A stretch of DNA of 64,000 nt, taken from a virus (lineage: Duplodnaviria; Caudoviricetes). Every line of letters begins with the position of its first letter. The stretch's first letter is position 1. This document shows positions 30,701 to 61,679 of the stretch, piece by piece. Where the stretch lies: IMG/VR virus record IMGVR_UViG_3300035199_000417, positions 893 to 64,892 of that record. One strand, 5' to 3'. The position numbers and the translations under genes were made by a program. The notes beneath the pieces were generated by a model that was not told the origin of the DNA, did not search any database, and worked only from the letters and a program-made list of their open reading frames with translations.

Positions 30701-33700
30701 TCTGCCTCATCTCCTGTTTAGCGAGTTCGGCCCTAGCAGCACGAGTACCGGGGAAGGCGATGTCCACCACATGGGCAAGGGCAGAATCCGCCGAGCCAAA
30801 CTTGAGAGGCATGCCGAATTGGTCATCAAGAACCACTCTCACTCCCTCGTCCCCAAGCAACTGGGGTGCCTTACCGGGGCTGGTCACTTCGATCCGATAA
30901 TGAGGGACTTTTTGAAACCCCTCCTTACCAACCTCTTCTGTGGCACGCGCATCTGGAGGTATTATCCTGTAGGAGACATTTCCGTCACCCTTGGCGGTCT
31001 CCCCTCGATTTATAGCGTTTGCAAAGTTAGCGACCGTGTCTATCGCGCCGTGAAGGCTTCTGACCTGCTGGTCTCGCCAACCTGTTTTTTCCAGGTCGGC
31101 CTGCATGGATTCCGGTAGGCTTGCGATGTAGTTATCAACCTTCACCTCCGCTCTCTGCTTAAGCGCCTTCGTGGTTCTGGGGATATCCTTACGAGCCTCT
31201 GGCTTGTCAGCAAGATTAAGAGCCGTCTCGTTAATGGTATCGTTCATCAGGCGGATTGGCTTTGCTTCATGCTGCCGCTTGATCTTTCCTTCTCTCTGTT
31301 TTCGCTCCCCTTCGACCTTTTTCTTCTCTTTAGTAATTTCTTCCTTTGTCTTGTCCTTCTGTTTCTCACTGACGACCGGGGGGCCCGGCTTCTTGGCAAA
31401 TGTCTTCTCGGGGCGAGACGGTGGTTTGGCTGGCTCAGAACTAACCGTGGCGTATTCTGGTAAGTTTCCTTCCTTGTCGAGGTCAACTTTCCATGTTCTT
31501 CCTGGCTCGCCACGAACATTACCACTATGCCCAGTGGTCACTACCGTTGCCGTGCCTGCCTCCTCATCAACCTCCAGAACTTTTGCCTCTACAATCCTTC
31601 CACTGAAAGGTGCTTCCTCTTTTTCAGGATTAAACTCCGGTAGCCCGTGTTTCTCACTTTGCGCGGCGGTTACCTTCGCATTAAGCGTGAGGGTTTTCCC
31701 TTCCAGTTCTTTCCCTTTGGGAGCTTCAGTGACAGGGGCCTCGGTGACGACCGGGGTCGGGACTACTTCGGCTTCAGTAGTGACGGGAGTGGTGACTTCC
31801 GGGGGGGCTTCCGGGGTGGCTACGACTTCGGGGACAGTCTCTAACTCCCTTTGTTTTTTTACGAAGGCCCTTAGTTGTTTTTCAGTTGCTTTGCTGAAGT
31901 CCGTTTCTTCATATTTCGTTCCTAAAGCTATTTCTTCTGCCATCTCTACGAGTTGTGGCTTATCCGCCTCCTTTAGCTCTTGATCCGCCAATGCTATTAA
32001 CTCATCTATCTCGTCCCCAGTAGGCTCACCAGTCGTAGTAACTTCGTCCAGCACCTCCCCGGTATCCGGGTCTAACACCTCACCCGGATCAGTTACCTCG
32101 ATGTCCTCGTCGATGGCTGCGTCCGGGTCTCGTATCACTCCCGGATCATGTACCTCAATGTCATCCGGGTCTCGTACCACACCCGGATCATGTACCTCAA
32201 TGTCATCGGCTGGGTCATCCGGGTCTCGTATCACGCCCGGATCAGTTACCTCGATGTCATCGGCTGGGTCTTCTTGACGCACATCGGGGTCATCTCCTCG
32301 CTGGATGCCCGTGGCTTCCTCAAATTCCTTCTCTTGCTTTTTCCTCTCATCATCAGCCTCCTCCCCAAGTACCTCCATCACCTTTACCGCCTCTTCGGCA
32401 GCGGCCTTGCTCTCCTTCCCCTCACGCTCGGTTGGCTTCTTTTTCCCCTCTTGGTACGCTTTCCAAAACTCCTCAGCGCCCAACCGATTGCGGGATTCAA
32501 GGCGATAATATATTTCCTTAGCCTGTTCTTCACTCTCCACCCCTTCAGCGAAGGCAGCAAACTGACCCGGTTTTGACTTTTCGACAAGCAAGTTCTGCTG
32601 GTGTTCGGTCAGTTGGCCCGACATCATTTCGGAGTAGGCCATCTCTTCCGCCAGATCAATGTTCGGGTCATCCTCGACCGTGCGGTCTAAGCCTAGCTGG
32701 TCGGAGTATTTCTCCTTGAGTCTGGCAAATTTCTTGGCGTCCATGTATTTTTCTACATAGTCGTACCCTTGCTGCCCCGCATAGCGACCACCCTCTGCCA
32801 TGCCAATCAGTACAGTGGTCTGAATTGCCGTATCCTTCATCGCCTCTTCGAACTGATCGGAGTCCATGGCGTGGAAGTCCATGGAGAAAATAACGTCCGT
32901 CATTAGCTGGGCGTAGGTGGTCGCTGATTCTTCCAGAAGTTCCGGGGGGAGGTTCGTGCCGATAGCTGCAAAGGCCCCCTGAATAGCCCTGGGATTGAAA
33001 AAACTGTTAATTGGGGTGCCGTCTTTAAGTTTTCGAGATGCAGCAAGCAGCTTTCGGAATTGTGTCTTGGCCGCTCCTTTAAGGAGTCCCCTGGACATCA
33101 ATCCCTCTAAGCCATGAGCCCCCATCTTCGAGAAGGTCATCGCAATACCGGCCTCAGCGCCGCCCTGCATCAAAGAATAGGCCAGGGCCTCCCACACACT
33201 GGGCTTAACTCCTTGGGCATTGATTTGGCTCCTCTTCCGGTGGTAGCTATCAGCGCCAACTCCCACACCAAATCCGCCTCCTAGATAATACGGCAACGCT
33301 TGGGGGGTGGCTCCGAGTGCAGAAGCGGCCCTCCCAATAAGCAACATCTCGGTCAGGTTTGCGCCAGCTTCGGAGAGAACCCGCGACACCTCACCCCCTA
33401 GAAATGACTTTTCGGCGGCAAGACTTGTCTCTGCGGTGACCTGTTCCCTGGCGTCATTTAGGTATTGGCTGAAGGCACCGAGCGTGAGTATGTTCGCGGG
33501 GCCTACACCGCCCTTCCTCAACGCATCCATGGCCTCGTCAATTATCGGGATATAGAATTTCTGATCCGCTGCGATCTTAGTAGCCGAGTCGAGAGACCTT
33601 TTGAACTCATAGATATGATCCTGTTTTTCAGCGTCCGACATCGCCTCATATTGGGCCAATCCCTCCTTGGTGGACCCGAATAAACCGTCGCGGATGTTTC

Positions 33701-40745: not shown

Positions 40746-41087
40746 TCACGTTCCGACCCTGTCTAGCTTTTTCTCGACCTCCTCCAGCTTCTGGTAGATG
40801 ACCTCCTGTTGGATGAGCATCCGCTCTACATCAACACGAAGAGCCTGGATGTCCTTGCCGCTGTCCTTAATGGCACTAGATAAGGAAGTCAGACCATCTA
40901 GCCTGAGCATAATCAAGCGGCGATCCGCGACGTATGGAGACTCGTCGCGGATCGCTTCGCTTACGTCGTCACGGGTAGCCGCTGCCATGGCGGTGTATGT
41001 CAGAAACACCATCCATGACACTAGCCCTGTAATCGTCAACCAGACGATCCTATCCTTCAGGCTACTGAAGTCCATTTCAGTCTCCAA
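40746..41087 (-). CDS. TM plus coiled-coil protein (holin-like)
   Basis: IVWLTITGLVSWMVFLTYTAMA followed by a heptad region ending KLEEVEKKLD. Confidence 0.55.
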   Translation of the reverse strand: METEMDFSSLKDRIVWLTITGLVSWMVFLTYTAMAAATRDDVSEAIRDESPYVADRRLIMLRLDGLTSLSSAIKDSGKDIQALRVDVERMLIQQEVIYQKLEEVEKKLDRVGT

Positions 41088-41093
41088 AGGATA

Positions 41094-41471
41094 TTACGCC
41101 ACTGCTGGGCCATCAGCCTCGGGATACGGGCCGAAGATGCGCCAGCAATAATCACCACTGGAATCTGGGTCTGGAACCGAGACCAGTAGTACCGTTTCGC
41201 CACCAACACGAAACTGAACTACGTTATCGTTGTTTTGATTAAAATCCGTGGTGGCAGTAACGTCCAAGTTCGCAACATGCGTCTTGTACGTCAGTACGAG
41301 AAAGATACCAGATTGCACTGGGTCAGCGAGCGTTCGGCCCGCATCAGCCGCTACGCTAACCAACTCGACAACCGCAGGATTGCGGTCGATTGAGATTGTA
41401 CCGCCAGAACCTGGGTCTTCCACCGTGGTGTCTGCGAGATAGTTGTCAGTTAAAGCTCTATGGCCTGACAT
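41094..41471 (-). CDS. small virion protein (hypothetical)
   Basis: GGAGG RBS, beta-rich, in the tail operon. Confidence 0.6.
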   Translation of the reverse strand: MSGHRALTDNYLADTTVEDPGSGGTISIDRNPAVVELVSVAADAGRTLADPVQSGIFLVLTYKTHVANLDVTATTDFNQNNDNVVQFRVGGETVLLVSVPDPDSSGDYCWRIFGPYPEADGPAVA

Positions 41472-41504
41472 AATTTTCCTCCATGAAAATAAAGAGTTAG
41501 TGTG

Positions 41505-41900
41505 TTATTCGGAACTGGCGTCTTCCTGATAGCCAGTTACTGTTATTGTTAACGATCCTGCACTTGGAAGGGCTTCGCTGCTAAATGTAAGGTCTTCATC
41601 CTTTGCACCGTATCCAATGATCCCCTGGCCGTTGCCAATTACGATAGTGCCGCTAGTGACACCTGGACCGTCAAAGGCAACAGAGCTAGAACTGCCAGTA
41701 GCACCGGCAACTGTTATTGTTCCAAAACCCACCTTGATATCTATGCCAGCACTAACCTCTAAGGTTATCCGCAGCGAGGTGAGAACAACTCTACTCCCGC
41801 CCTGTGGATCGAAGAGTACGGTGCTGGACTGGGCATCGCCACTCGTATAAAGGACGCGATACGTCCGCATAAATGTTGCGGCTGGGAGGTTATAGTGCAT
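41505..41900 (-). CDS. small beta-sandwich virion protein (hypothetical)
   Basis: 131 aa, S/T/G/V-rich. Confidence 0.6.
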   Translation of the reverse strand: MHYNLPAATFMRTYRVLYTSGDAQSSTVLFDPQGGSRVVLTSLRITLEVSAGIDIKVGFGTITVAGATGSSSSVAFDGPGVTSGTIVIGNGQGIIGYGAKDEDLTFSSEALPSAGSLTITVTGYQEDASSE

Positions 41901-41910
41901 GGTAGATTCC

Positions 41911-42276
41911 TTATGCCTCTATGAGCAGGTATTCGATGATGACATTGCCGGTGTTAGCGATCACGAATGGCGCGGTGGCATCGGCGGCGAAGCGGAACAG
42001 AGCGAACTCGCCAGCATTGATCCTGATGAGATCGGCTACCCCTGTGGCCTGCCGAACCTCGACGTAGTTGGTTGAATCGAGGTTCTTAATCAGACAGAGA
42101 CCGGGGGTTCCAGCGTCGAGCATGCCGAGTGCCTCTTCGCCAGTGCCGACAGTCTGGGTTCTGTGGGTGATGTCCCCACCAGACATATCAATAGAGAGGC
42201 CAACCTTTGCTAACTTGTCGGTGACGCCGTCCTTGGTTACCTGTAGAGAGCCGCTAACAGTAATTTCTTCGGCCAT
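41911..42276 (-). CDS. small virion protein (hypothetical)
   Basis: GGAGG RBS; LIKNLDSTNYVEV...INAGEFALF. Confidence 0.65.
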   Translation of the reverse strand: MAEEITVSGSLQVTKDGVTDKLAKVGLSIDMSGGDITHRTQTVGTGEEALGMLDAGTPGLCLIKNLDSTNYVEVRQATGVADLIRINAGEFALFRFAADATAPFVIANTGNVIIEYLLIEA

Positions 42277-42290
42277 CCTTGGCCTCCTTT

Positions 42291-45200
42291 TTATGGTGAG
42301 TATCCTGTGTAGGTGACAAGATTAAGATCGGCGTCGTGAATGTCGTTGATAAACTGGTCACTCGGCCTGTCCGATCCGTCGTAATCCCGACCAAGTGTGT
42401 CCGGGCTGGATAGTTGTCTGTCATAGCTAATAGATGCCTGAAGACACTGCATGTACGGCATCTCATGCGGGCTTCGAGGCATCTTCATAAATAGATCGGC
42501 AGACATGAGGCAAGCCTCTAACAGCGTCTGCGTATGGGGCTGCCCCCCTAATGGGTGTTCCTGGTCCTGAACGATAAATCTGGGGTTCGTTTCATACCGA
42601 TAGTGTAACGTGTAAGCCTGATCTGGCACAGGATATAGAAGGATTTCATATCGAGTTCCAGAAAATTCCCCACCAATTATGGGTCGAATCGCAAAATACC
42701 GAGTTCTTCCGGTGTGGTCACCGGCCTGTCGTAGCTGCTCGATCTGTGATTCAGATATCTCCTCGACGTGTGGATAGAGAACCGCAGAGCCAGGGGCGAA
42801 GTGCATGGGGCCATTGAAGGTTCCGAAATCGTCAGGCAGATCGTAAGCGTATGTGTCAGCAATACATTTGAATGTTTGCTTCGGATACAAAAAGCTCCAG
42901 CGGTGCATCTCCCTTTCGTTGGGGAGAACCATCGGGTAATAGAACCTTCTCAGGCCGTCCATGACCGCTTGTTCAATCTGGGACTTCTCGTCATGTGTCC
43001 AGCCTCCTGGGTTGGGCTTTGAATACATAGCGTGGCCAACACGTCTCAGCAGCCCCTTACGGTTTAAGGTCAGGTCTTCCGGGGTATCCTCGATGGGCCA
43101 TATTTTCGCGGCGTACAAACCGGATGCCGCGCCCAGGGCGGCGTCACCAAACTTGCTGTCCCGATTGATTGAAGCTGCTAGGCATCTCTGAAATTCCGCT
43201 TCGTGGGGCCCGGTTTTATCCAGGAACCGATCCGCAGCCCACAGGCATGATTCCAAAATCGTTGTCGAGTGTAGCCGAGAGCCGTATGGGTAGGCGTTCT
43301 CATCATTGATAAAGCCTGGAATAACGTCGTACTGATACCTTAGCGTGTGGGCGGCAGTGGGTTTGGGATAGAAAACAATCTCGTAAATCTGTTGGAACCC
43401 TGCACTGACGACCTTGGGCCTGATGGCACAATACGATGGCTCCGTAGCGGTTTGGGCCAGGGTACTCCTGAGACTCCTCAAGTCCTCCTCTGTCACTAAC
43501 TTGATTGGAGCCTGGGTTCCTGAATCAAATGTGATTGTATCGGATACCAGACCGCCAAAATCCACAGGTAGATCATACGTGTCAGTGTTGGCGGCTGTTA
43601 CCAAGGAAGCGTTCGGACTCAGAAAACTCCAAGAGTGCCCTTCGGCTCCCTTTACCGGCGTATACCAATAGAAGTTAGTCAAGCCGGTAATCAATATCTG
43701 TTCTAAGCGGCTCGTCTCGTCGTGGCTCCAGGAGCCAGAATTGGGCTTGCCGAAAACATGGTGACCAAGTCGCTTCAGCAAGCCAGCCCTGTCAAACGCA
43801 AGATCACTGATCGGGTCTTCTATGGGCCAAACCCTGCCACTGTCCCCATCAGAAAGCGAGATATCCCTCTGGATAGAAGCAGCTAGGTTTTTTTGAAACT
43901 CCGCTTCGTGGATTCCGGTCTCTCCGAGCATTTTGTCGGAGGCGGCAAGACAGGACTCCAAAATCGTAATTGAGTGGAGCCGAGAGCCACGGGGGAAGGT
44001 GTCACTCTCGTTAATAAACCCCGGAATAACATCATATTCATATTTAAGAGTGTGTCCCGCCGTTGGGCTCGGGTAGAAGGAGACCTCATAAATCTGTTGA
44101 AAGCCTTCGCTGGGCTCCTTGAGTCTGATGGAACAATACGATGGCTCCGCAGCCGTCTGGGCCAGCGTCCCCTTAAGAGTCCGCAGTTCCCTCTCCGTCA
44201 CTAATTTAACGGGGGCCTGGGTTCCTGAAGTGAAGGTAAACCCGTCTAGCCTTAGCCCCCCAAAATCTGATGGGAGATCGTAGGTAGATGTGCTGGCAAC
44301 AATTGACAACGAGGCGCTGGGCCGCAAAAAGCTCCAGGAATGGGACGGGCCACCTTCGGGAGAAGTGTACCAATAAAAGTTATTGAGCCCAGTCGCCAGG
44401 GCTAGGTCTACCCGTCTCTTTTCGTCGTGACTCCACGATCCTGGATTGGGTTTATTAAAAAGCCGGTCTCCCAACCTCTGCTGAAGGTCCGCCCTATTAA
44501 GGCTTAACCCCGTGTCAACGGGCTTTATGGGCCAAATATGGGAATCCCCCCCGGTGGGAAGGGCCACGTCCCTCTGAATGGAGGCTATTAGGTGCTTCCG
44601 AAACTCCGCTTCATGGGCCCCAGATTCTCCCAGAATCTTTTCGGATGCCGCCAGACAGGCTTCTAAAATGGTGATCGAATGAAGCCTGGAACCGCGAGGA
44701 AATCTATCCTGTTTATCTATGAAATCTGGAATAACGTCGTATTCATATTTCAAGGTATGAGCGGCAGTAGGGCTCGGGTAAAAAGACACCTCGTAAATCT
44801 GCTGGAATCCTGCACTGGGCTCCTTGAGCCGAATCGAGCAGTACGAAGGCTCATTGGCCGACTGGGACAAGGTGCCCCTGAGTGTTCTCAGTTCCTCTTC
44901 GGTCACCAGCTTGATAGGTGCCTGGGCACCGGATTCAAACGTAAAGCCCCCCAGACGCAAGCCGCCGAAGTCGGTGGGCAAGTCATAGGTGGAAGTATCG
45001 GCAGCAACTGACAACGAGGCGGAGGGGCGCAGAAAACTCCAGGTATGGGCCTCGGCCCCTTCCGGGGGTGTGTACCAGTAGAAGTCATTGAGCCCGGTTG
45101 CCAGGGCTAGGTCTACCTGTTTCCTTTCGTCGTGGCTCCACGATCCTGGATTGGGAAGATCGAACATCTGCTGGCCGATCCTCTGGAGCAGACCGTCCCG

Positions 45201-48200
45201 GTCTATGCCTAGTGTCTCTGTGTCGGGCCCTATCGGCCAGATACCGGCGGCACCCGTGTCCCCCTCTGAAAACTTCTTGTCGCGGAGGATTGATGAGACC
45301 AGACATTTCTGAAATTCCGCTTCGTGTGTGCCCTTCTCGCCAAGAAACTCGTCAGCGGAAAACAGACACGCTTCTAGGATCGTTGTCGAATGCAGACGCG
45401 ATCCGTATGGATAAATGTTTGAACTATCAATGAAATTAGGAATTATGCTGTAGCGATACCGCAGCGTATGGCTGGCAGTTGGCTCTGGATAGAAGATTGC
45501 CTGATACACCTGTTCAGAGCCCGCGCTTGTGACTTTCGGCCTAATTGCACAGTAGGACGGAGCGGTAGCGGTCTGGGCCAGCGTCCCGCGAAGAGTCTGA
45601 AGTTCACTCTCAGAAACCACTCTGATGGGGGCCTGGGTTCCTGAATCAAACGTGAACTCTTTGGAATGGAGACCACCAAAATCCGCAGGTAGGTCATAAG
45701 CCGATGCACCGGACACGATAGATAGATTCTTACTCGGATTCAGAAAACTCCAGTCGTGTTCCCCTGTCCCTTCGGTGGGAGTAAACCAATAAAATCTACT
45801 CAGCCCCGCAACCATAATTTGATCCAGGCGGCGCTGCTCGTCGTGGCTCCAAGAACCTGGATTGGGCTTGTCAAAAACATGATGGCCCAATCGCTGAAGC
45901 AGACTGTCCCGATCAAAAGTTAGGCTTGTACGGGCATCCTCTATCGGCCATGCGCGGCTGGTCCTGGCTATGGACAAAAACTTCTGGTCGCGGCGGATAG
46001 AAGCGACTAGGCACTTCTGAAACTCCGCCTCATGGTTAACCGGCCCCTCAAGACCAAGCTCGCGTTGAGCGGAGGCGAGGCATGATTCCAGGATCGCCAT
46101 CGAGTACATCCGCGAGCCTAGAGGATAGACGTTGTCGTTGTCTATGAAGCCAGGGATAACTGAATAGCGGTACTTCAGAGTGTGGGCAGCGGTCGGCTTA
46201 GGATAGAAAACAACCTCATGGACTTGCTCGAAGCCCTCGCTAACGGCCTTCGGCCTGATAGCGCAGTACGATGGCTCGGAAGCCGTCTGTGCGAGAGTCC
46301 CCCTGATGGCACGAAGCTCCTCCTCGGACACTAACTTAACGGGGGCCTCTGTGCCAGAATCGAATGTGAACTCTCCAGACTCCAAGCCGCCAAAGTCCAC
46401 GGGCAGATCGTAAGTGTCGGTGCTGGCTAATAGCGACAGCTTCGCAGCGGGCTTCAGAAAACTCCACGAATGCGATTCGTCAGACCCTTCTGGCGACGTG
46501 TACCAATAGAAATTACTGAGACCATTAACTAATATCTGCTCAACTATGCTTTTCTCGTCGTGCGTCCAGGAACCGGGGCTTGGCTTATCAAAGGCAAGCG
46601 ACCCGATGCGTTGTCTCAGTCTAAACCTGTCCAGAGTTAAGCCAGTGGGCATCTCGTCCATTGGCCAGATGTGGGCGCGGTTCCCCTCATCAGAAAGTCC
46701 TCGGTCTCGGTAAATTGAGGCCACTAGGGCTTTCTGAAACTCTGCCTCCTGGGGGCCGGGGGCTCCAGCAATCTGGTCGGCTGCTGCCAGACACGCTGCC
46801 AGGATAGTTGCGGAATGCAGGCGAGAGCCATACGGGAAGACATCCGTGTCATCTATTAGCCCCGGAATGACGCTATAGCGGTATCTCAGCGTATTGGCAG
46901 CGGTAGGCGACGGGTAGAAGACTGCCTCGTAAAACTGTTCAAACCCATCAACGGTAACCTTCGGCCTAATGGCACAATACTGGGGCTCCGTAGCAGTCTG
47001 AGCGAGGGTACTCTGGATAGTCCTTAGCTCTTCTTCGGTAACCAGCTTTACAGGTGTTTTATTCCCGGTCTCAAATGTAAAGCCGTTCGAATAAATACCA
47101 CCAAAGTCAGCGGGGAGAGCGTATGTGTCCGTGTTGGCAATTAACTCACAGTATGCGGTGGGTTTTAGAAAGCTCCACGAATGCTGTTCGCCTCCCTCTG
47201 GCGGCGTGTGCCAATAAAATGAACTCAAGCCAGCAACCAGGGCCTGTTCTACTTTCCGCGACTCGTCGTGACTCCAAGAGCCTGGGTTGGGCTTAGTAAA
47301 AAGTCTCTCGCCAATCCTCTGCCGAAGGTCTAGTCTGTTGAGGCTTAGTCCCGTGTCGTCAGGCTTTGTGGGCCAAATGTGTTCAGTCTCCCCAGTAGGG
47401 ATACCACCATCCCTCCGAATGGACGCCATTAGTTTCTTCTGAAACTCCGCTTCGTGCGCCCCAGGTTCTCCACCACTCCGTTCGCCTGCTGCTAGGCAGG
47501 ATTCTAAAATGGTATCTGAGTGAACCCTGGAGCCGCGAGGGTATATGTCCTGCTCATCTATAAACCCCGGAATAACATCGTATTCGTATTTCAGGGTATG
47601 AGCGGCAGTAGGGCTCGGATAGAAAGACGCTTCATAGATTTGTTGAAAGCCCTCACTCTGCTCCTTGAGCCTGATCGAGCAATATGAGGGTTCAGTTGCA
47701 GATTCAGCCAGAGTGCCCCTAAGCGTTCTCAGTTCTCCCTCTGATACCAACTTAATGGGGGCCTGTGTCCCAGATTCAAACGTGAATCCCCCTAGACGCA
47801 GGCCACCGAAGTCTACTGGCAAGTCATAGGTAGACGTGTTGGCAACAAGCGACAACGAAGCGGATGGCCTCAGAAAACTCCAGGTGTGGGTCTCTCCGCC
47901 CTCTGGTGGCGTGTACCAGTAAAATGAAGACAAACCAGCAACCAGAACCCGCTCTACTTCCTTGGTTTCGTCGTGACTCCATGAGCCTGGATTGGGCTTG
48001 TTAAAAAGCTGGTTACCAAGTCTCTGCCGAAGGTCTGACCGATCAAGGGTTAAGTCATCCTGCGGGTCTTCAATCGGCCAGATGTTAGCGCCTTCGGCCC
48101 CGTCCGAAAACTCCTGGTCTCGACTGATCGAGGAAGCGAGACACCTCTCAAACTCGGCCTGATGATTGACGCCTCCTTCCTCCTCTGTCTCTAAGAACTT

Positions 48201-48785
48201 GCGTTGGGCGACGGCCAAACAAGATTCCAAGATCGTGGTAGAGTGGAGACGAGAACCGTATGGGTACTTATTACTATCGTCAATCAGGCCGGGAATGATC
48301 GAGTAGCGGTATCTCAGGGTGTGGGCGGCTGTCGGTGACGGGTATAACAGCACCTCATAAATCTGCTCAATTCCTTCGTTTGTTATCTTTGGCCTTACCG
48401 CACAGTACGAGGGCTCGGTCGCAGTCTGCGCCAGGGTTCCCTGCACAGCGCGAAGCTCCTCTTCGGTCACCAGCTTGATAGGTGCCTGGGTTCCTGTATC
48501 AAAGGTAAAGCCATCGGAATAGAAACCGCCGAAATCCGTGGGGAGGTCATAGGTGCTGGTGTTGGCTGAAATGCCTAGTGTTGCACTTGGCTTCAAAAAG
48601 CTCCAAGAGTGGGCCTCGGCCCCCTGGGCCGGGGTGTACCAGTAGAAGTTACTGAGCCCTGTTATCAGGACATCTTGGACATTTCGAACTAGCTCGGGTT
48701 CCCATTGCTCTGGTTCCCGCGACTGGCCAATAAACCACCCAAGTTCCCGGCGTATGTCGTCATATGTTTTGCTAAGTTCTGACAT
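42291..48785 (-). CDS. head-tail adaptor/ring-like protein made of nine tandem ~235-243-aa units
   Basis: Nine copies of GL..FY...H.WSFL.P...YDLP.DFG...YP.P....TL.Y.Y...P.G...H..TI/LL..CL; lies between the capsid and nozzle genes. Confidence 0.8.
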   Translation of the reverse strand: MSELSKTYDDIRRELGWFIGQSREPEQWEPELVRNVQDVLITGLSNFYWYTPAQGAEAHSWSFLKPSATLGISANTSTYDLPTDFGGFYSDGFTFDTGTQAPIKLVTEEELRAVQGTLAQTATEPSYCAVRPKITNEGIEQIYEVLLYPSPTAAHTLRYRYSIIPGLIDDSNKYPYGSRLHSTTILESCLAVAQRKFLETEEEGGVNHQAEFERCLASSISRDQEFSDGAEGANIWPIEDPQDDLTLDRSDLRQRLGNQLFNKPNPGSWSHDETKEVERVLVAGLSSFYWYTPPEGGETHTWSFLRPSASLSLVANTSTYDLPVDFGGLRLGGFTFESGTQAPIKLVSEGELRTLRGTLAESATEPSYCSIRLKEQSEGFQQIYEASFYPSPTAAHTLKYEYDVIPGFIDEQDIYPRGSRVHSDTILESCLAAGERSGGEPGAHEAEFQKKLMASIRRDGGIPTGETEHIWPTKPDDTGLSLNRLDLRQRIGERLFTKPNPGSWSHDESRKVEQALVAGLSSFYWHTPPEGGEQHSWSFLKPTAYCELIANTDTYALPADFGGIYSNGFTFETGNKTPVKLVTEEELRTIQSTLAQTATEPQYCAIRPKVTVDGFEQFYEAVFYPSPTAANTLRYRYSVIPGLIDDTDVFPYGSRLHSATILAACLAAADQIAGAPGPQEAEFQKALVASIYRDRGLSDEGNRAHIWPMDEMPTGLTLDRFRLRQRIGSLAFDKPSPGSWTHDEKSIVEQILVNGLSNFYWYTSPEGSDESHSWSFLKPAAKLSLLASTDTYDLPVDFGGLESGEFTFDSGTEAPVKLVSEEELRAIRGTLAQTASEPSYCAIRPKAVSEGFEQVHEVVFYPKPTAAHTLKYRYSVIPGFIDNDNVYPLGSRMYSMAILESCLASAQRELGLEGPVNHEAEFQKCLVASIRRDQKFLSIARTSRAWPIEDARTSLTFDRDSLLQRLGHHVFDKPNPGSWSHDEQRRLDQIMVAGLSRFYWFTPTEGTGEHDWSFLNPSKNLSIVSGASAYDLPADFGGLHSKEFTFDSGTQAPIRVVSESELQTLRGTLAQTATAPSYCAIRPKVTSAGSEQVYQAIFYPEPTASHTLRYRYSIIPNFIDSSNIYPYGSRLHSTTILEACLFSADEFLGEKGTHEAEFQKCLVSSILRDKKFSEGDTGAAGIWPIGPDTETLGIDRDGLLQRIGQQMFDLPNPGSWSHDERKQVDLALATGLNDFYWYTPPEGAEAHTWSFLRPSASLSVAADTSTYDLPTDFGGLRLGGFTFESGAQAPIKLVTEEELRTLRGTLSQSANEPSYCSIRLKEPSAGFQQIYEVSFYPSPTAAHTLKYEYDVIPDFIDKQDRFPRGSRLHSITILEACLAASEKILGESGAHEAEFRKHLIASIQRDVALPTGGDSHIWPIKPVDTGLSLNRADLQQRLGDRLFNKPNPGSWSHDEKRRVDLALATGLNNFYWYTSPEGGPSHSWSFLRPSASLSIVASTSTYDLPSDFGGLRLDGFTFTSGTQAPVKLVTERELRTLKGTLAQTAAEPSYCSIRLKEPSEGFQQIYEVSFYPSPTAGHTLKYEYDVIPGFINESDTFPRGSRLHSITILESCLAASDKMLGETGIHEAEFQKNLAASIQRDISLSDGDSGRVWPIEDPISDLAFDRAGLLKRLGHHVFGKPNSGSWSHDETSRLEQILITGLTNFYWYTPVKGAEGHSWSFLSPNASLVTAANTDTYDLPVDFGGLVSDTITFDSGTQAPIKLVTEEDLRSLRSTLAQTATEPSYCAIRPKVVSAGFQQIYEIVFYPKPTAAHTLRYQYDVIPGFINDENAYPYGSRLHSTTILESCLWAADRFLDKTGPHEAEFQRCLAASINRDSKFGDAALGAASGLYAAKIWPIEDTPEDLTLNRKGLLRRVGHAMYSKPNPGGWTHDEKSQIEQAVMDGLRRFYYPMVLPNEREMHRWSFLYPKQTFKCIADTYAYDLPDDFGTFNGPMHFAPGSAVLYPHVEEISESQIEQLRQAGDHTGRTRYFAIRPIIGGEFSGTRYEILLYPVPDQAYTLHYRYETNPRFIVQDQEHPLGGQPHTQTLLEACLMSADLFMKMPRSPHEMPYMQCLQASISYDRQLSSPDTLGRDYDGSDRPSDQFINDIHDADLNLVTYTGYSP

Positions 48786-49099
48786 CAGCTAAGGTTCCTC
48801 TTAACGTGAAATCCTTCAATCTCTGACTTAAATGTTCCAGTGGATAAGATTACCTGTGCCTGCATCTCCCAGTGGCCGACCTCATCCAGGTCACCGGCAA
48901 CCGTCGTGTACTTAATCTTGCCATCAGTTCCAGAGGTGCCGCCGAACTCAGCAGTTTTAGTCACAACCTTGCCGCTAGGTTTCTTGAACGTAATGTATTT
49001 TTCGTTAGAACCGGCAGACTGCACATCCACCACACTGCCTCCATCCTTCATTGTGAGCATGAAGACCGTTCCAATATCGTCCTGATGTATTTCAGCCAT
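48785..49099 (-). CDS. BppU N-terminal-like tail protein
   Basis: DIGTVF...FKKPSG...DGKIKYTTVAGDLDEVGHWEMQAQV...F.V..NL. Confidence 0.7.
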   Translation of the reverse strand: MAEIHQDDIGTVFMLTMKDGGSVVDVQSAGSNEKYITFKKPSGKVVTKTAEFGGTSGTDGKIKYTTVAGDLDEVGHWEMQAQVILSTGTFKSEIEGFHVKRNLS

Positions 49100-49114
49100 G
49101 TCTCTTCCCTCGGA

Positions 49115-49393
49115 TCATCCGTCTGTCACCCTGTTCACCCCCTGGCTAAACGAGGCATCTGTCTCCAGGGAGGCGCTCATATCTGCACACTTTGACGATG
49201 AAACACCCATGTTCACGTCCACCGCAAAGGACTTGGTCATTTCCATGGTGGAGCAAAGGAGTGTGCCGATAGAGACATCAAAGTCGATAACCTCTTCGGT
49301 TGCTACCACCTGTAATTGAAGAAGCAGTTCGCTGCCATCTTGCAGCAGCAAGGAGCCTGTTCCATCCTGTAATAGAATCCCGTCAGCCATCAC
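49115..49393 (-). CDS. small tail-associated protein
   Basis: ILLQDGTGSLLLQDGSELLLQ repeat, seen in fibre-associated proteins. Confidence 0.55.
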   Translation of the reverse strand: MMADGILLQDGTGSLLLQDGSELLLQLQVVATEEVIDFDVSIGTLLCSTMEMTKSFAVDVNMGVSSSKCADMSASLETDASFSQGVNRVTDG

Positions 49394-49411
49394 TAAACAT
49401 CCTGGTCTTCG

Positions 49412-50704
49412 TCAGATTACTTCTTCAATTTCAAATGAGGAGAAAAGATAAGGAGTGGCTGCGTCGTAGTAAACATTTCTAGCCATGCCATACGAGTGGT
49501 AGCCGTAAAGGTCGATATAATCGCCGTCGCTCAAGCTAAGTAATGTCGTTCCAGCGTTGTGACTCCAGGCATCGGCGTGACGGCGAGTTAGCTCTACTAT
49601 GTTGCTGCCGTTCTTGTAAAGGTATGAAATCTGGATGCCATACGTTACGTTTTCCCAAATTAAATTTGCTCCAACACGATAATGACCATCTCGGCGCACA
49701 GTAAATGTAGACGATGCCGCTATGTCGCCAACATCGTACACCTCAGTGCCGGTGGTTATCTTCGCAGTTGTCGCAGTGTTAACTGACTGCGCTGCGGCAT
49801 TCTTCATTTGCGCCTTGCACGGTATGCGGCCATCATGGTCAACAATCCAGGTAGTGTTCGCAACAACGCATCGCAGCTTGATATATTCGCCAGTGATAAA
49901 CAGACGCAGGCTTCCGGTGCTGTGACCCGAAATGGAATCGCCGCCTGCCGCCGCAACAATAAGATCGTAGGTGTCATCGCCGGTAGTAACAGCAATTTCA
50001 ATGACATCGCCCACCGCACAGGTTCCAGGCGTGGTATATGTACGGGTAGCACCGAAACCGGCAGTGCTGCCGAAGTAGGTCGTCTTAACTGCCATCGTTA
50101 CGTTAGCATCGGAAATTGCGGTATAGGTCAGCGATGAGCCGCCTGCGGAGGCTATCGTGACAGTATCACTGCCTGCCGTTGTCGTGATTGTTACGTTTGC
50201 ACCAGCAGCAAGGGTGAGCGTATCGGTAGCAGAATCAGCGACAACATTGTCCTGGCCCGATACGGCTATCGTTTTGAATATGTTGTTATTGCTATTTAGC
50301 AACGTGGAAATACTGGTCAATCCGGTTCCACCGTATCCAGCGGCAACAGTAGTTCCTTGCCAGACTCCAGTTGCAATCGTGCCAACGGCGGTAATCTGTG
50401 TTTGGGAGGCATTAACGGCCAGCACAGAACTTGTTGCAGTAAGGCCAGTACCGGCAAACAGGGTAGCCAAGTCGTGTACGGCTTCCTTTGAGTGTGTGCC
50501 GGTTGCCCCTCCGTCCAAGAAAAGAATATAGTCACCGTTAGCAATGGCAGCTTCGGGCGCTCCGGTCATACAGTTCCCCCAGGTGATATACCTGGACGAA
50601 CCGCTGGCGTGATCCGTCGTAGTGGAAACGTCAACGGCGTACAGAACGTCAGCGGCATCTAACGCTGTGATCGCAGTCAGGGCAGGTAGTCTTGTGTCTG
50701 CCAT
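49412..50704 (-). CDS. tail fibre with C-terminal C1q-like domain
   Basis: T/A/G-rich; GTIATGVWQG, YGGTG, FKTIAVSGQDNVVADSATDTLTL; FTVRRDGHYRV...LSLSDGDYIDLYG. Confidence 0.8.
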   Translation of the reverse strand: MADTRLPALTAITALDAADVLYAVDVSTTTDHASGSSRYITWGNCMTGAPEAAIANGDYILFLDGGATGTHSKEAVHDLATLFAGTGLTATSSVLAVNASQTQITAVGTIATGVWQGTTVAAGYGGTGLTSISTLLNSNNNIFKTIAVSGQDNVVADSATDTLTLAAGANVTITTTAGSDTVTIASAGGSSLTYTAISDANVTMAVKTTYFGSTAGFGATRTYTTPGTCAVGDVIEIAVTTGDDTYDLIVAAAGGDSISGHSTGSLRLFITGEYIKLRCVVANTTWIVDHDGRIPCKAQMKNAAAQSVNTATTAKITTGTEVYDVGDIAASSTFTVRRDGHYRVGANLIWENVTYGIQISYLYKNGSNIVELTRRHADAWSHNAGTTLLSLSDGDYIDLYGYHSYGMARNVYYDAATPYLFSSFEIEEVI

Positions 50705-52855: not shown

Positions 52856-52888
52856 GCTAGGGGCTAGCGAATTTGCTAACCCCTAGCG
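52856..52888 (-). terminator. hairpin after the major capsid gene
   Basis: GCTAGGGG...CCCCTAGC inverted repeat followed by ATTTACTTTT on the minus strand. Confidence 0.5.
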
Positions 52889-52902
52889 GTTATTGGTTAC
52901 TG

Positions 52903-53937
52903 TTACTTGGACCCAACCCACATGGCTCGGCGGTTGTAACAACAATATTGCATCCAGTTATCAATATGAACTTCCCGAACCGTGTGCTGCCGGGCTGCGG
53001 GCTTCGGCGGGTTACGCCGCATGTTCGCGCCTTTCTTCACAACCGGACGGAAGTATTTCCAGTTAACCCCGTACAAGGGATCGTCGGTATCGTTAGATTC
53101 CAGATACGGAACCCACTTAATCGGCACACCACCAATGACCACACTGTTGATGTACTTCGCCACGTCGGCACCGAGATTGTCGTTGCGAGTTTCCGCAAGA
53201 CGTTCCAGCGGTTCCTGCACTCGGTAGGTCGTGTAGATGGCGTGAGAAGGACTAGCGTAGCCCAACTCGGGGTGGGGGACAGGCGGCGTAAAGTTAGTGA
53301 ACGCCAGGGATTTCTTGACCTTTTTGATAAGATCGTCGGACGCTATGGCGCTATACTGGAACGTCCAATTACTGAATCGCGGAAATGTCACACTACTAAC
53401 ATTTGCACAACCAGTAGAGTGAGTAGACGGGTTTCCGCCGTTGAATGCACCACCAGGAGTGGAGGTGTTCTTCTGAAGCCAGAAGGGAACGCCCATGGGA
53501 CGAGTGTCGGTAGTGGACGTAGGAGCCGTCCAAAGATTCTCTTCATTCAACTCTGCCATATCGGACAGAGCGTCATGCTCGCGAATCTTGAGTTCCTTGA
53601 TGATCGTCTCACGATCACTCTGGAACAAGTCCTCGTAGATGTCGTAGCTGAAGTTCGTAGTCTGCATCGCCCACGGCACACTGGCGGTGGTCGTCACATC
53701 CTCGACCTTGGTGATGTCCTGGGCATACATCCCCGTATTACGGGAGTTGCCGGTGTTCTTGTGCTTGATACGGAAGGAAATATCCTTACCGCCGCGCTCC
53801 TGCACGTTCTTCTCGGTGATGATGCCAGACGCAACATACTCCTGATGCTCCAGGCTGATGTCCGTCCACTTGTGCTTCTTAAATAACGAGAGTGTTAGAT
53901 TGACAAAGTCGTCAATTTGAAGGGGTGTCAGTGCCAT
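52903..53937 (-). CDS. major capsid protein
   Basis: 344 aa, GGAGG RBS, downstream of portal and scaffold; GGKDISF, EENLW, PMGVPFW, GVPIKWVPYL, CYNRRA. Confidence 0.8.
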   Translation of the reverse strand: MALTPLQIDDFVNLTLSLFKKHKWTDISLEHQEYVASGIITEKNVQERGGKDISFRIKHKNTGNSRNTGMYAQDITKVEDVTTTASVPWAMQTTNFSYDIYEDLFQSDRETIIKELKIREHDALSDMAELNEENLWTAPTSTTDTRPMGVPFWLQKNTSTPGGAFNGGNPSTHSTGCANVSSVTFPRFSNWTFQYSAIASDDLIKKVKKSLAFTNFTPPVPHPELGYASPSHAIYTTYRVQEPLERLAETRNDNLGADVAKYINSVVIGGVPIKWVPYLESNDTDDPLYGVNWKYFRPVVKKGANMRRNPPKPAARQHTVREVHIDNWMQYCCYNRRAMWVGSK

Positions 53938-59080: not shown

Positions 59081-61045
59081 CTAACTCCATTGTCCCGTTA
59101 ATTTTCCCACCTCCCTGTCGTCCCACTCATCTGCATTCTTGGGCTTCTCGGCCTCGGCCATCCTAGCCGCCATGCAGTATGGAGGGATCAGACCTGTGTT
59201 GAGCGCCTCATCATTCAGACTAAGGCTTTTCCCAACCGGACGGTCGATAGCCGCTTGCACCGCTACTACAAATGCCATCACCCTGTCGCCGTGGGCCGCG
59301 CCCTTGGTGGCGTCTGATGGGCTCTTCGTTGCGGTAAGGTGTTCGATCTTTCCATTGAGCATGACATACTCGCTGCACTCCTGCCTGAGCGACTCACTGC
59401 GAATCTTGATCTCGCCCTGTTCGACCATGCGGATGAAGTCAGCGAAGCCCGCATCCTTGGACGCCGGGTTGGTGTGCCACCCTATGTCTTGCGTCTTCCG
59501 CTTACCTCGCTTACCCCATATGGTTCTCATGTAGATGTTGGGGTAGCCGATTTCCTTTACTCGCTTTGTGAACCCGCCTCCATAGTTGATTTCCCACGCT
59601 AGGTATCCCTCATGGAACCACTTGGCTATAGCGACCGCCTGCTCCCCAAACTCACTGGGCTCCACGATGTTTGTGGCGTACTCCATGACCTGGGTCATCG
59701 TTATGAGGTCTATCACCTGGATGACGGAGTTTGAGGTGTGGCTTCCGCCGAGGCCAGAAGAGATGTCTGCCGCAATGGCGTAAGACCTCAATGGTGGTCG
59801 ATTGCTGTGATCCAGGTTGCACCAAACCTTGATCGGGCCACCCCTGGCCTCCTGAAAGGACATCTCATGCTTTACCCGGTCTACTACGAGCGTCCCCTCA
59901 TATCTTATAGGCAGAACCGATTCCTTCGCTTTCTTAAAGAACCCAGGCCCCATGATACGGTGAACCGAGCCGCCGTAATCTCGATCCAGTTCCTGTGCGA
60001 TGGACTGTGGAGTTGCGCCGGGCCTATCGCACTGTCGGTCGTACCATGGAGACCTGAGCTTGTTCTCTAACTTGAACCCCTTTTGTCTCAGCCTTGAGAA
60101 CAGATCGAGAGTGTTCTGGTCGGGAGGATCGTAGTTCTTAGGCAGCGGATTTTTAACGTCCGATACCACCGGCTTCCCATGGACGAGTTTATAGAGCCCT
60201 TTGTTTCTCGACTCGTTCTGCTTCCAGTCTAGAATTAGCTTGACCATGTTGGACGGCGTGTGCATTAGCTTGTAGTATTCGCCCTCCGCACCCTTGGGCG
60301 TGGAGATTAGCACACGGGATTCCGTAACATGCTGGGTTGACGCCATGGCCTCGCTGTCTTGTGGGCGGGGAAACTTTGCGAGTTCGTCAAACAAAATCCA
60401 GTATTTACGACCACCAGTCGTAACGTCCCCCGTTGCCGAGTAGCCCACTATCTGCGAACCATTCCGATTGTTCTTCAGGATGTGCTTCGACACGTTCCGG
60501 GAATAGTCCTTTGACAGCTTGTCGGTAGTAGCCGACTTCTCGCCCGCCATCCAAGGCGGCAGCTTCGTCAACTCCCAGTCGGCCTTCCAGAACAGCGAGT
60601 CGGGGTCTTCCGGGTTGTCTACCGCCAGTTCTGTTCTCGATATGAAACCGATAGCGGACATTGGCTCAAAAATCCAATCGTGGAGAGCCAACAAGATAAA
60701 CATCCAGGATGCCCCCTCGCCACGGGACTTCTCTATGCCGACATCGGAGTAGCCAATCGCCTCCCTAGCGGCCAGAATGACGGGGTCTTGGTGTTCCCAG
60801 GTGATGAATGGGATGATGGTGGGGTATTTCGTTCCGTTCTTGGCCTTTTTCGGCCTCGGCTCATACAGCCAACAAAAGGCGTTGAAGAAGAAAAGCACGT
60901 CTTCACGGCAGGCGTCCATGATCGACTTCTGCACATTGAAGTTGTTCTCGGCCTGGGCGAGAATTATCTCTCGCTGCCTGATGTTAGTGTCGAACTCCTT
61001 ACCACCCTTGGCACAAAAGGCTTCGTAATGTCTAGTTGTGGGCAT
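59081..61045 (-). CDS. terL: terminase large subunit
   Basis: PFITWEHQ, IEKSRGEGASW, ILFDELA, ISTPKG, nuclease IAADISSG and HGDRVMA. Confidence 0.92.
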   Translation of the reverse strand: MPTTRHYEAFCAKGGKEFDTNIRQREIILAQAENNFNVQKSIMDACREDVLFFFNAFCWLYEPRPKKAKNGTKYPTIIPFITWEHQDPVILAAREAIGYSDVGIEKSRGEGASWMFILLALHDWIFEPMSAIGFISRTELAVDNPEDPDSLFWKADWELTKLPPWMAGEKSATTDKLSKDYSRNVSKHILKNNRNGSQIVGYSATGDVTTGGRKYWILFDELAKFPRPQDSEAMASTQHVTESRVLISTPKGAEGEYYKLMHTPSNMVKLILDWKQNESRNKGLYKLVHGKPVVSDVKNPLPKNYDPPDQNTLDLFSRLRQKGFKLENKLRSPWYDRQCDRPGATPQSIAQELDRDYGGSVHRIMGPGFFKKAKESVLPIRYEGTLVVDRVKHEMSFQEARGGPIKVWCNLDHSNRPPLRSYAIAADISSGLGGSHTSNSVIQVIDLITMTQVMEYATNIVEPSEFGEQAVAIAKWFHEGYLAWEINYGGGFTKRVKEIGYPNIYMRTIWGKRGKRKTQDIGWHTNPASKDAGFADFIRMVEQGEIKIRSESLRQECSEYVMLNGKIEHLTATKSPSDATKGAAHGDRVMAFVVAVQAAIDRPVGKSLSLNDEALNTGLIPPYCMAARMAEAEKPKNADEWDDREVGKLTGQWS

Positions 61046-61679
61046 CGGGGAGGTCATCCAGGATGTTGGTGATGATACTCCTGACCTCAACTAGGGTCGG
61101 GTCTTTTTTCCGAATTACCTCGGCCTCTTCCTTCTTGTGAACGACCGGCTGGGGTGGAGGCTTTTCCGCTGCCTGCAACCCCTTGAAGAACTCCTTGGGC
61201 TCGTTGCACCAATACTGCAACTTGTTTACAGCCGCCTGAGATGGGGCCTCCAGAACGTCATCAATCGACAGGATGACTTTATTGGCCTTGGGATTGCGGG
61301 CTCGTCGCCGCATGGCGGGGTGGGATGCGATCCAGTTGTTCTCGGTCTTGGGGACAGTCTTCAGCGGGAAGCGATTGACAATCGACTCGAACTCCGACTG
61401 GGCCGCGATGTCACCCTTTTGGAGGTCCGACTCCACTTGGAGGTACTGCCTGAATAGCTCTCTCTCTTCAGTGGCCCCGCGATAGTCGTGATCCCCGGCA
61501 ATCCTGTGGACAATCGTCGAGTACCCTTTCTCGCCTGTCTCCTTTTTGATCGCGAGAATCTCCCGCTTTACCTTCCTCCAGTTGCCCTCTCGCTCCAGAC
61601 GAAACTGCCACAGGGCGTGAGGATCATCATGCTCTGTATGGATTTTCTTCTTAGGTTGCGTCCTTGCCATTCGCTTCAT
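61032..61679 (-). CDS. hypothetical protein, candidate terminase small subunit
   Basis: Directly upstream of and overlapping TerL; position only. Confidence 0.4.
   Translation of the reverse strand: MKRMARTQPKKKIHTEHDDPHALWQFRLEREGNWRKVKREILAIKKETGEKGYSTIVHRIAGDHDYRGATEERELFRQYLQVESDLQKGDIAAQSEFESIVNRFPLKTVPKTENNWIASHPAMRRRARNPKANKVILSIDDVLEAPSQAAVNKLQYWCNEPKEFFKGLQAAEKPPPQPVVHKKEEAEVIRKKDPTLVEVRSIITNILDDLPDAHN

Follow-up and report, generated by a model that had tools for sequence, protein, structure and literature searches.

Array gene and its repeat units

The stretch analysed here (the window, 64,000 nucleotides (nt) in length) covers bases 893-64892 of IMGVR_UViG_3300035199_000417, a linear IMG/VR record of 64,892 bp from a virus (Duplodnaviria; Caudoviricetes). 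A single open reading frame (ORF) with an ATG start encodes a protein of 2164 amino acids (aa) that consists of nine tandem units of the SU10_adaptor type, numbered U1 to U9 from the N-terminus (Table 1). This array gene, its relatives and the tail structure that it might build are the subject of the present analysis. Its ATG overlaps the stop codon of the upstream 104-aa ORF by one base (TGATG), and its TAA is followed by a Shine-Dalgarno-like AAGGAGG and then by the next ORF, which makes the array one gene in a tightly packed late operon. The overlap of stop and start suggests translational coupling between the two ORFs.

Table 1. Array gene, units, unit junctions and neighbouring genes, in window positions
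Feature	Position	Strand	Remarks
Array gene	42291..48785	-	2164 aa
U1	48084-48785	-	aa 1-234; without WP arm
U2	47379-48083	-	starts with [IAV]WP arm
U3	46671-47378	-	starts with [IAV]WP arm
U4	45954-46670	-	starts with [IAV]WP arm
U5	45243-45953	-	starts with [IAV]WP arm
U6	44538-45242	-	starts with [IAV]WP arm
U7	43833-44537	-	starts with [IAV]WP arm
U8	43104-43832	-	starts with [IAV]WP arm; U2-U8 together aa 235-1894
U9	42294-43103	-	aa 1895-2164; most divergent unit
C-terminal tail of U9	42294..42407	-	about aa 2127-2164; motif PDTLG..D.SD ... VTY.G as in single-unit adaptors
Unit junction	43103/4		bridged, e.g. by record 1
Unit junctions	43832/3, 44537/8		bridged, e.g. by record 2
Unit junction	45242/3		bridged, e.g. 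by records 12, 29
Unit junction	45953/4		bridged, e.g. by records 5, 13, 30
Unit junction	46670/1		bridged, e.g. by records 6, 22
Unit junction	47378/9		bridged, e.g. by record 7
Unit junction	48083/4		bridged, e.g. by records 8, 14, 23, 31
Terminase large subunit	59081..61090	-	Terminase_6N 30.1 bits; phrog_2 E 2.8e-16
Portal candidate, 631 aa	57103..58998	-	adjoins the terminase gene; Atlas lead
Likely major capsid protein, 344 aa	52903..53937	-	82-83% identity to L009/L010
104-aa ORF	48785..49099	-	67-73% identity in two-unit relatives
Four small ORFs (121, 131, 125, 113 aa)	40746..42276	-	between array and nozzle gene; partly kept in relatives
Predicted nozzle protein, 779 aa	38403..40742	-	mostly beta strands in the model; fold search

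Unit borders were set by cutting at the [IAV]WP linkers, of which there are eight (six IWP, one AWP and one VWP), and the resulting units measure 234-243 aa for U1-U8 and 270 aa for U9. The motif FYW (eight times) or FYY (once) recurs at aa 47, 288, 523, 759, 998, 1235, 1470, 1705 and 1948, that is, at window positions 48647, 47924, 47219, 46511, 45794, 45083, 44378, 43673 and 42944. Across the nine units 42 alignment columns are invariant, among them WSF, Y.LP.DF and YP.P....TL.Y. A preliminary description of this DNA had reported nine units in 2164 aa, joined by a conserved [IAV]WP linker and marked by FYW or FYY, with unit 9 the most divergent, and had named W.F, Y.LP.DF and YP.P...Y as motifs of podoviral adaptors. 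The motifs, the linkers and the family search described below all bear out this anatomy, and each of its nine motif positions lies within 10 nt of the sites found here.

Divergence between the units is considerable. Amino acid identity is 52-74% within U1-U8 and 30-40% to U9 (30% between the first and the last unit); nucleotide identity is 54-72% and 42-49%, respectively, and identity at third codon positions is 28-50%. By Nei-Gojobori counts, the proportion of synonymous differences between units (pS) is 0.68-0.88, which is saturated, and that of nonsynonymous differences (pN) is 0.16-0.33 among U1-U8 and 0.42-0.51 to U9. Saturated pS together with low pN indicates that the duplications are old and that each unit has been kept by purifying selection. 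Tandem Repeats Finder returns no rows for 41000-50000, as expected when the period exceeds its 500-nt limit and the copies are only 54-72% identical in nucleotides, and this does not count against the repeat. The idea that synonymous sites had been scrambled as a guard against repeat recombination was rejected: at identical residues, codons agree 1784 times where 1571.5 agreements are expected (ratio 1.135), which is plain saturation with slight residual homology.

Adaptor family and fold of the units

The PF24175 (SU10_adaptor) profile, whose curated cut-off is 27 bits, matches nine stretches of the whole protein (274.3 bits, E 1.2e-81). Each of the nine units exceeds the cut-off in a six-frame search of the whole record (29.4-43.6 bits), and the units searched singly score 30.6-40.2 bits (U1 40.2, U9 35.5). 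Beyond these nine, the six-frame search finds no further SU10_adaptor match in the 64.9-kb record, and the same search of 14 control genomes gives no match. Other sequence resources say little: PHROGs yields a weak match for U1 only (phrog_6013 'tail protein', E 0.0021), and no adaptor came up when the PDB was searched by sequence with the nine-unit profile, so that fold comparison was needed.

The pair U8-U9 was folded by AlphaFold (AF2) from an alignment (A2) that includes 63 natural two-unit relatives. The model has a mean predicted local distance difference test score (pLDDT) of 90.0 and a predicted template modelling score (pTM) of 0.82. In the prediction, a beta domain stands in each unit between two helices at the N-terminus and two long ones at the C-terminus. 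The pLDDT is low for the last ~38 residues of U9, and among internal parts the linker has the lowest confidence (pLDDT 59 for residues 231-240 and 78 for 241-250). A complex prediction with two copies of U8-U9 (residues 8-488 of A2) scored 0.00, which is neutral on binding.

In a Foldseek search of the PDB, the top matches of the U8-U9 model are adaptor chains, SU10 (E 8.7e-8) and A4 (1e-7), followed among the top matches by VP1, Pa223, GP4, crAss001 and DEV; the crAss001 ring chains are matched at E 1e-4 to 7e-4. Folds were re-aligned with VIA, a tool whose caution level is Z 8. U9 aligns with the A4 adaptor 9k09_d at Z 14.4 (205/216 residues), with VP1 at Z 13.4, with SU10 7z47_A at Z 13.3 (209/227 residues) and with T7 gp11 at Z 8.5-9.0, and U8 aligns with the N4 tail chain at Z 8.7. 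Alignments with crAss001 fall below the caution level (U9 with 7qoi_FS 7.6 and 7qog_B 7.5, U8 with 7qoj_F 7.8). Matches in BFVD are mostly uncultured-phage proteins of ~200-230 aa, and a few carry the name 'Head to tail adaptor' or 'Tail tubular protein A'.

By profile score and predicted fold, the units are podovirus-type head-to-tail adaptor domains. The identity given in the preliminary description is thus upheld by all nine units on the family profile and by fold scores of Z 8.5-14.4 to A4, VP1, SU10 and T7, and with an adaptor fold in the model, the objection that the unit might lack one no longer applies. The canonical member of PF24175 has one domain, and the nine-domain protein is a variant of the family.

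Integrity of the array in independent assemblies

Parts of the window occur in 20 public runs from 14 studies, labelled as marine, seawater or hydrothermal vent metagenomes. Contigs from four runs of four other studies, with a possible source run left out, were placed on 41800-49300. They are mostly at least 99% identical to it and give depth in 26-30 of 30 bins. All eight unit junctions are bridged, each by at least one contig, and because each unit is unique in sequence, the bridging contigs fix the order of the units.

The array comes from a metagenome-derived virus record, and strain variants of a single adaptor gene could in principle have been collapsed into a false tandem array, a possibility that the preliminary description had named. 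Its probability is close to nil. Nucleotide differences between units (28-46% within U1-U8, 51-58% against U9) and saturated synonymous sites are far past strain variation, and the reading frame stays open across 2164 codons. Contigs of the four other studies span every junction, and independent records hold seven- and six-unit arrays of orthologous units in the same order. The one contig that might speak for an artefact is a low-depth contig of run X5 (depth 2.5, shorter side 33 nt) that joins 46422 to 47967 and thus leads from U4 into U2; the skip of 1544 nt is not a multiple of 3, and the evidence is weak. The joint may reflect a strain with a shorter array, or a shortcut between repeats in the assembly graph.

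Relatives and the unit-number series

An exhaustive profile search of 1.84 billion cluster representatives returned 2845 proteins at E≤1e-3, 836 of them at E≤1e-30. A near-length search yielded two complete proteins whose N- and C-termini are those of the array, one of seven units (P0002, 1687 aa) and one of six (P0003, 1448 aa). Two-unit proteins with the same end units are also present (P0011, L009, L010); L009 and L010, the closest IMG/VR loci, are 71-74% identical to U1 and share neighbouring genes with the window.

Units were counted in 153 proteins, namely the window protein, the two near-length matches and the best 150 of the 2845 representatives, with a crude merging rule for hidden Markov model matches and in a set biased towards many units. 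One unit was counted in 8 proteins, two in 83, three in 36, four in 13, five in 6, six in 2, seven in 3 and nine in 1; the one remaining protein, P0005, was counted as '10', a miscount of about five units split by insertions. By this crude count at least 145/153 proteins have two or more units, and the window protein is the largest form seen, among relatives of up to 3787 aa. The survey of homologues for which the preliminary description had called thus gives 1-9 units across a large family. The nine-unit protein is the top end of this uncultivated family and not a one-off. A tblastn search with U8-U9 of 50,697 deposited phage records gave no match, and a scan of genome contigs found one weak locus in a metagenome-assembled genome (L040, E 4e-6), which offers no clue to the host.

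In four loci the units are split over two adjacent genes, the first with one unit and no tail and the second with two units and the tail (L015 2-2314, L018 1456-3653, L021 567-3277, L024 6377-8322). The gene border in these split forms lies exactly at the unit border. In three of the four an aromatic-Pro arm opens the second gene, as M-V-W-P in L024 and as Y-P and H-P in L018 and L015.

Some relatives carry additional sequence. P0005, P0008, P0024, P0025 and P0027 have an insertion in the beta domain of a unit, with the motif ..APYSTGT..GVVTL.GG.FP.WAA.GEL... In P0018 insertions of several hundred residues lie inside the first and fourth units, and P0130 has an unrelated N-terminal region of ~570 aa before its single unit. 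Extra surface domains seem to use the adaptor rings as a platform.

Positional classes of units

A tree of units from the nine-, seven-, six- and two-unit proteins places first units in one clade and last units in another, with support of 100/100 for each. U1 is orthologous to the first units of the seven-, six- and two-unit relatives, and U9 to the last unit of all relatives and to the single-unit adaptors. Several internal units are collinear orthologues across arrays. U2, U6 and U7 cluster with unit 2 of the six-unit relative, which points to internal duplication.

The same classes appear when the best match of each unit is sought in another protein, among 26 proteins with four or more units: first units match first units in 22/25 cases, last units match last units in 23/25 and internal units match internal units in 61/65. 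In 8/26 proteins the closest unit to each internal one lies within the same protein, a pattern of independent, lineage-specific amplification.

Two end features follow these classes. A free C-terminal tail of ~38 aa is found on the last unit only, with the tail motif of single-unit relatives, and U1-U8 have the linker in its place. The aromatic-Pro (WP) arm occurs only on units that follow another unit; first units and single-unit adaptors have none.

Gene neighbourhood

The whole region lies on the minus strand, in the order terminase large subunit, 631-aa protein, head genes, 104-aa ORF, array, four small ORFs and 779-aa protein. PHROGs gives no match for the ORFs next to the array. For the 631-aa protein, which has no Pfam or PDB sequence match, the nearest named Atlas clusters score 0.98, and PF23899 (SU10_portal) occurs in 24-57% of their members; this language-model lead makes it a candidate portal of the SU10 type. 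The 344-aa protein also has no Pfam or PDB sequence match. It is the best conserved protein of the module in the comparison with L009 and L010 and is likely the major capsid protein.

The 779-aa protein was modelled with 21 homologues (pLDDT 77, pTM 0.73). Its fold matches the SU10 tail chain 7z4b_DW (listed at 910 residues; E 7e-19) and the T7 nozzle gp12 (7boy_s, E 1.2e-12), and further matches are the A4 chain 9k09_U, a P22 gp10-gp26 entry and the crAss001 muzzle. This fold search supersedes the weak family leads of an Atlas search with the same protein. On the strength of the model, the 779-aa protein is read as the nozzle, the expected partner of a distal adaptor ring. The phage has the portal-adaptor-nozzle plan of a podovirus.

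Synteny around the array holds with the two-unit relatives L009 and L010. It also holds with the single-unit relative L016, whose one adaptor gene occupies the slot of the array between head genes and nozzle, which argues against another gene being the true adaptor. This bears on a further possibility named in the preliminary description, that the adaptor proper lies elsewhere. The nine units are the only SU10_adaptor matches in the record and the slot is that of L016; the matter is not fully closed, as CheckV puts the 64.9-kb record at 54% completeness. The same tool gives 100% for the 67.5-kb record of the two-unit relative G001. Either the genome of the nine-unit phage is much larger, or these estimates are unreliable for the lineage.

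Published adaptor rings and stacked barrels

The adaptors of SU10 and A4 are dodecamers that form one ring each (PMC9509320, PMC12002296). In A4 a C-terminal embracing tail inserts between two portal subunits (PMC12002296), and in SU10 an embracing loop is wedged between portal clip domains, with neighbouring adaptor subunits in two alternating conformations (PMC9509320). The helix bundles of the adaptor ring are capped by a hexameric nozzle (PMC9509320, PMC12002296). A different arrangement is described for crAss001, whose ~23 nm barrel consists of five stacked dodecamers, R1-R5, built from four paralogous ring proteins, gp43, gp40, gp35 and gp34 (Bayfield et al., Nature 2023; PMC10172136). 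The last ring, R5, touches the 6-fold muzzle through its N-terminal residues 15-26, and other podoviruses have been seen with one adaptor ring only, according to the crAss001 paper (PMC10172136). The preliminary description had cited crAss-like phages as a precedent for rings stacked from separate paralogous genes, in agreement with this account.

The array unit shares the helix bundle and beta domain of the SU10 gp11, A4 gp32, T7 gp11, VP1, Pa223 and GP4 adaptors, as well as the PF24175 family, the position of the gene between head genes and nozzle, and the C-terminal tail of the last unit. Podovirus adaptors are single chains (195-236 residues in the matched ones listed), whereas nine domains are fused here, eight of which lack a free C-terminal tail and bear a WP arm at the N-terminus in addition. 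With phicrAss001, as published, the array phages share several paralogous adaptor-fold modules per phage and a ring number that would vary among relatives. The proposed lengthening of a podovirus tail by stacked dodecameric rings between the portal and a 6-fold nozzle or muzzle is also common to both. They differ in that phicrAss001 has four separate genes whose products are 15-31% identical, whereas the nine modules here are fused and 30-74% identical, and in that stacking is solved in the reported phicrAss001 structure and inferred here. The array unit is nearer to adaptors of the SU10, A4 and T7 type than to crAss rings (Z 13-14 vs ~7.7). The listed tblastn matches of the terminase large subunit are Acinetobacter and Vibrio phages at ~26% identity and show no Crassvirales affinity, crass-specific markers not having been searched.

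A tape measure protein lies extended within the tube, and separate tube subunits polymerise around it. As with such rulers, tail length in the array phages would be set by the length of one gene product; unlike them, the tube wall itself would be the ruler, counted in whole domains. A search of the open-access literature found no paper on fused or tandem adaptor or ring proteins. Multi-ring barrels are known from one phage group, with separate genes, and by this comparison the fused form appears to be new.

A proposed axial barrel of fused rings

The array gene probably encodes a concatenated adaptor, of which twelve uncleaved chains would run axially through nine stacked dodecameric rings. 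From the relatives and the published structures, we infer the ring stoichiometry, the axial stacking, the polarity and the uncleaved state of the chain as follows. Twelve 2164-aa chains would lie side by side, each adaptor domain contributing to one dodecameric ring, and the nine rings, one on another, would form a hollow barrel that links portal and nozzle and is the covalent counterpart of the crAss001 barrel. Each chain would run from the nozzle end (unit 1) to the portal end (unit 9). Unit 9 would form the portal-proximal ring, its tail hooking into the portal clip as in ordinary adaptors, and unit 1 the distal ring, whose helix bundle would dock the hexameric nozzle. Units 2-8 would be spacer rings, with the WP arm and a short linker at the ring-ring interfaces; at each interface the C-terminal end of the distal unit would meet the N-terminal arm of the next proximal unit and be joined to it there. 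Barrel length would equal the number of units and would change by duplication or deletion of internal units. Scaled from crAss001 (five rings, ~23 nm), nine rings would measure ~41 nm and two rings ~9 nm.

The axial course is favoured because of the unit numbers of the relatives, the split-gene forms and the restriction of the tail to the last unit. Five, seven or nine units cannot close a 12-fold ring in the plane, and any number can be stacked. The preliminary description had argued from nine alone, which does not fit 12-fold symmetry within one ring, and its argument is stronger with the whole series. Its adaptor domains, its crAss precedent and its real array all stand; the axial run of each chain through nine rings, which it also put forward, is kept here as a proposal.

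Several points weigh against this proposal. The barrel is read from genes and predicted folds, for a phage that is uncultivated. The confident U8-U9 model does not reveal whether the packing of the two units is axial or lateral. The fold similarity to crAss001 rings is moderate (Z 7.5-7.8), with no relationship to Crassvirales found; the portal assignment comes from a language-model lead alone; and the unit counts derive from a biased best-150 list and a crude rule that took P0005 for ten units. The WP conserved in every linker could equally be a processing site.

This last point belongs to a rival architecture, in which the protein would be a polyprotein, cut at or near the [IAV]WP linkers into nine subunits of ~26 kDa that form separate rings as in crAss001; the fusion would then serve only to supply equal amounts of each ring protein. 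WP is invariant in all eight linkers, confidence inside the model is lowest at the linker, and a covalent link is not needed for function where relatives split the units over two genes or where, as published, crAss001 uses separate ones. Yet the aromatic-Pro arm is kept on the separately encoded second genes of L024, L018 and L015, where no cut is needed, so that the motif looks like part of the unit. Its absence from first units and single-unit adaptors fits a ring-ring contact, and Pfam and PHROGs searches of the window turned up no recognisable protease. Adaptors, moreover, attach outside the filled head, away from the prohead protease. Cleavage is judged unlikely; if it did occur, the barrel of stacked rings would still stand, and only the covalent string would be affected.

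Two further arrangements would alter the barrel itself, and both fit the positional conservation and the unit numbers less well than the axial stack. It is improbable that only unit 9 forms an adaptor ring, bound directly to the nozzle, with units 1-8 as a flexible string of beads that points outward as a collar, whisker or fibre. Repeat arrays in fibres and decoration proteins do vary in number lineage by lineage, as do the internal units here, which were amplified in this way, and P0018, P0130 and P0005 carry large insertions or other N-terminal domains. A loose string, however, would hardly explain why internal units keep the 42 invariant residues under purifying selection, or why first units form a conserved orthologous class of their own, as expected if they docked a fixed partner. 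The pTM of the U8-U9 model suggests a fixed interface between the two units and not a floppy string, and the precedent reported for crAss001 has stacked rings (PMC10172136). Consecutive units might instead sit side by side in pseudo-12-fold rings, for example four chains of nine units giving 36 domains and three rings, an arrangement that we regard as very improbable. The two-unit class is the commonest (83/153), and six such chains would give a 12-domain ring that matches the 6-fold nozzle; in the SU10 adaptor, as described, neighbouring subunits take up two alternating conformations (PMC9509320). But the five, seven and nine units of relatives do not divide 12, one portal-binding tail per chain would leave most portal clefts empty, and the first and last units, 30% identical, belong to separate conserved classes. 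The axial barrel of uncut chains remains the preferred architecture.

Implications for tail length

If the chains do stack axially, the tube wall might, quite possibly, consist of twelve covalent strings of adaptor domains, one pass per ring. Its length would then be encoded digitally by repeat number (2, 6, 7 and 9 in close relatives), and unequal recombination of internal units would adjust it, with neither a tape measure nor a tube protein of its own required. Long non-contractile tails would then have arisen by an independent route, derived from podoviruses and widespread among uncultivated marine phages.

The data speak for a large, so far undescribed family whose ring number is gene-encoded and evolvable. 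They suggest that multi-ring barrels, for which crAss001, with five rings from four genes as published, had been the exceptional case, are common in uncultivated phages, and that rings can be fused, up to nine per chain. Across the natural series, from 1 to 9 units, longer genes should go with longer tails, and the series opens tail-length control, ring-ring interfaces, the 12-to-6 symmetry hand-over and cargo space to testing. The split forms are useful natural controls on whether the covalent link matters. Protein nanotubes of defined length could also be built from such a modular, self-stacking ring domain. The interest of the finding is limited by the crAss001 precedent, and its support consists of sequence and predicted fold.

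Other features of the region

Neither L009 nor L010 has a counterpart of the 430-aa ORF (49412-50704, minus strand) that lies between head genes and array; they carry several other ORFs at this site. The 430-aa ORF resembles a variable cassette set into a module that is otherwise syntenic. Antisense to the 344-aa gene runs an open frame of 337 codons (52873-53886, plus strand), probably a shadow ORF.

Five genes downstream of the nozzle gene lies a giant ORF (18726-34523, minus strand) of 5265 aa, in which no Pfam family reaches the cut-off. The two-unit relative G001 has a comparable giant ORF of ~4480 codons by coordinate arithmetic, which spans at least 3862 codons in L037 and continues into an open frame at the end of L009. 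Scaling of giant-ORF length with unit number was considered and rejected, as the two-unit G001 also has a giant ORF. The first 1200 aa have no match in G001-G003, and the C-terminal ~1500 aa are 27% identical to the G001 counterpart (tblastn). The product may be an ejected or cargo protein.

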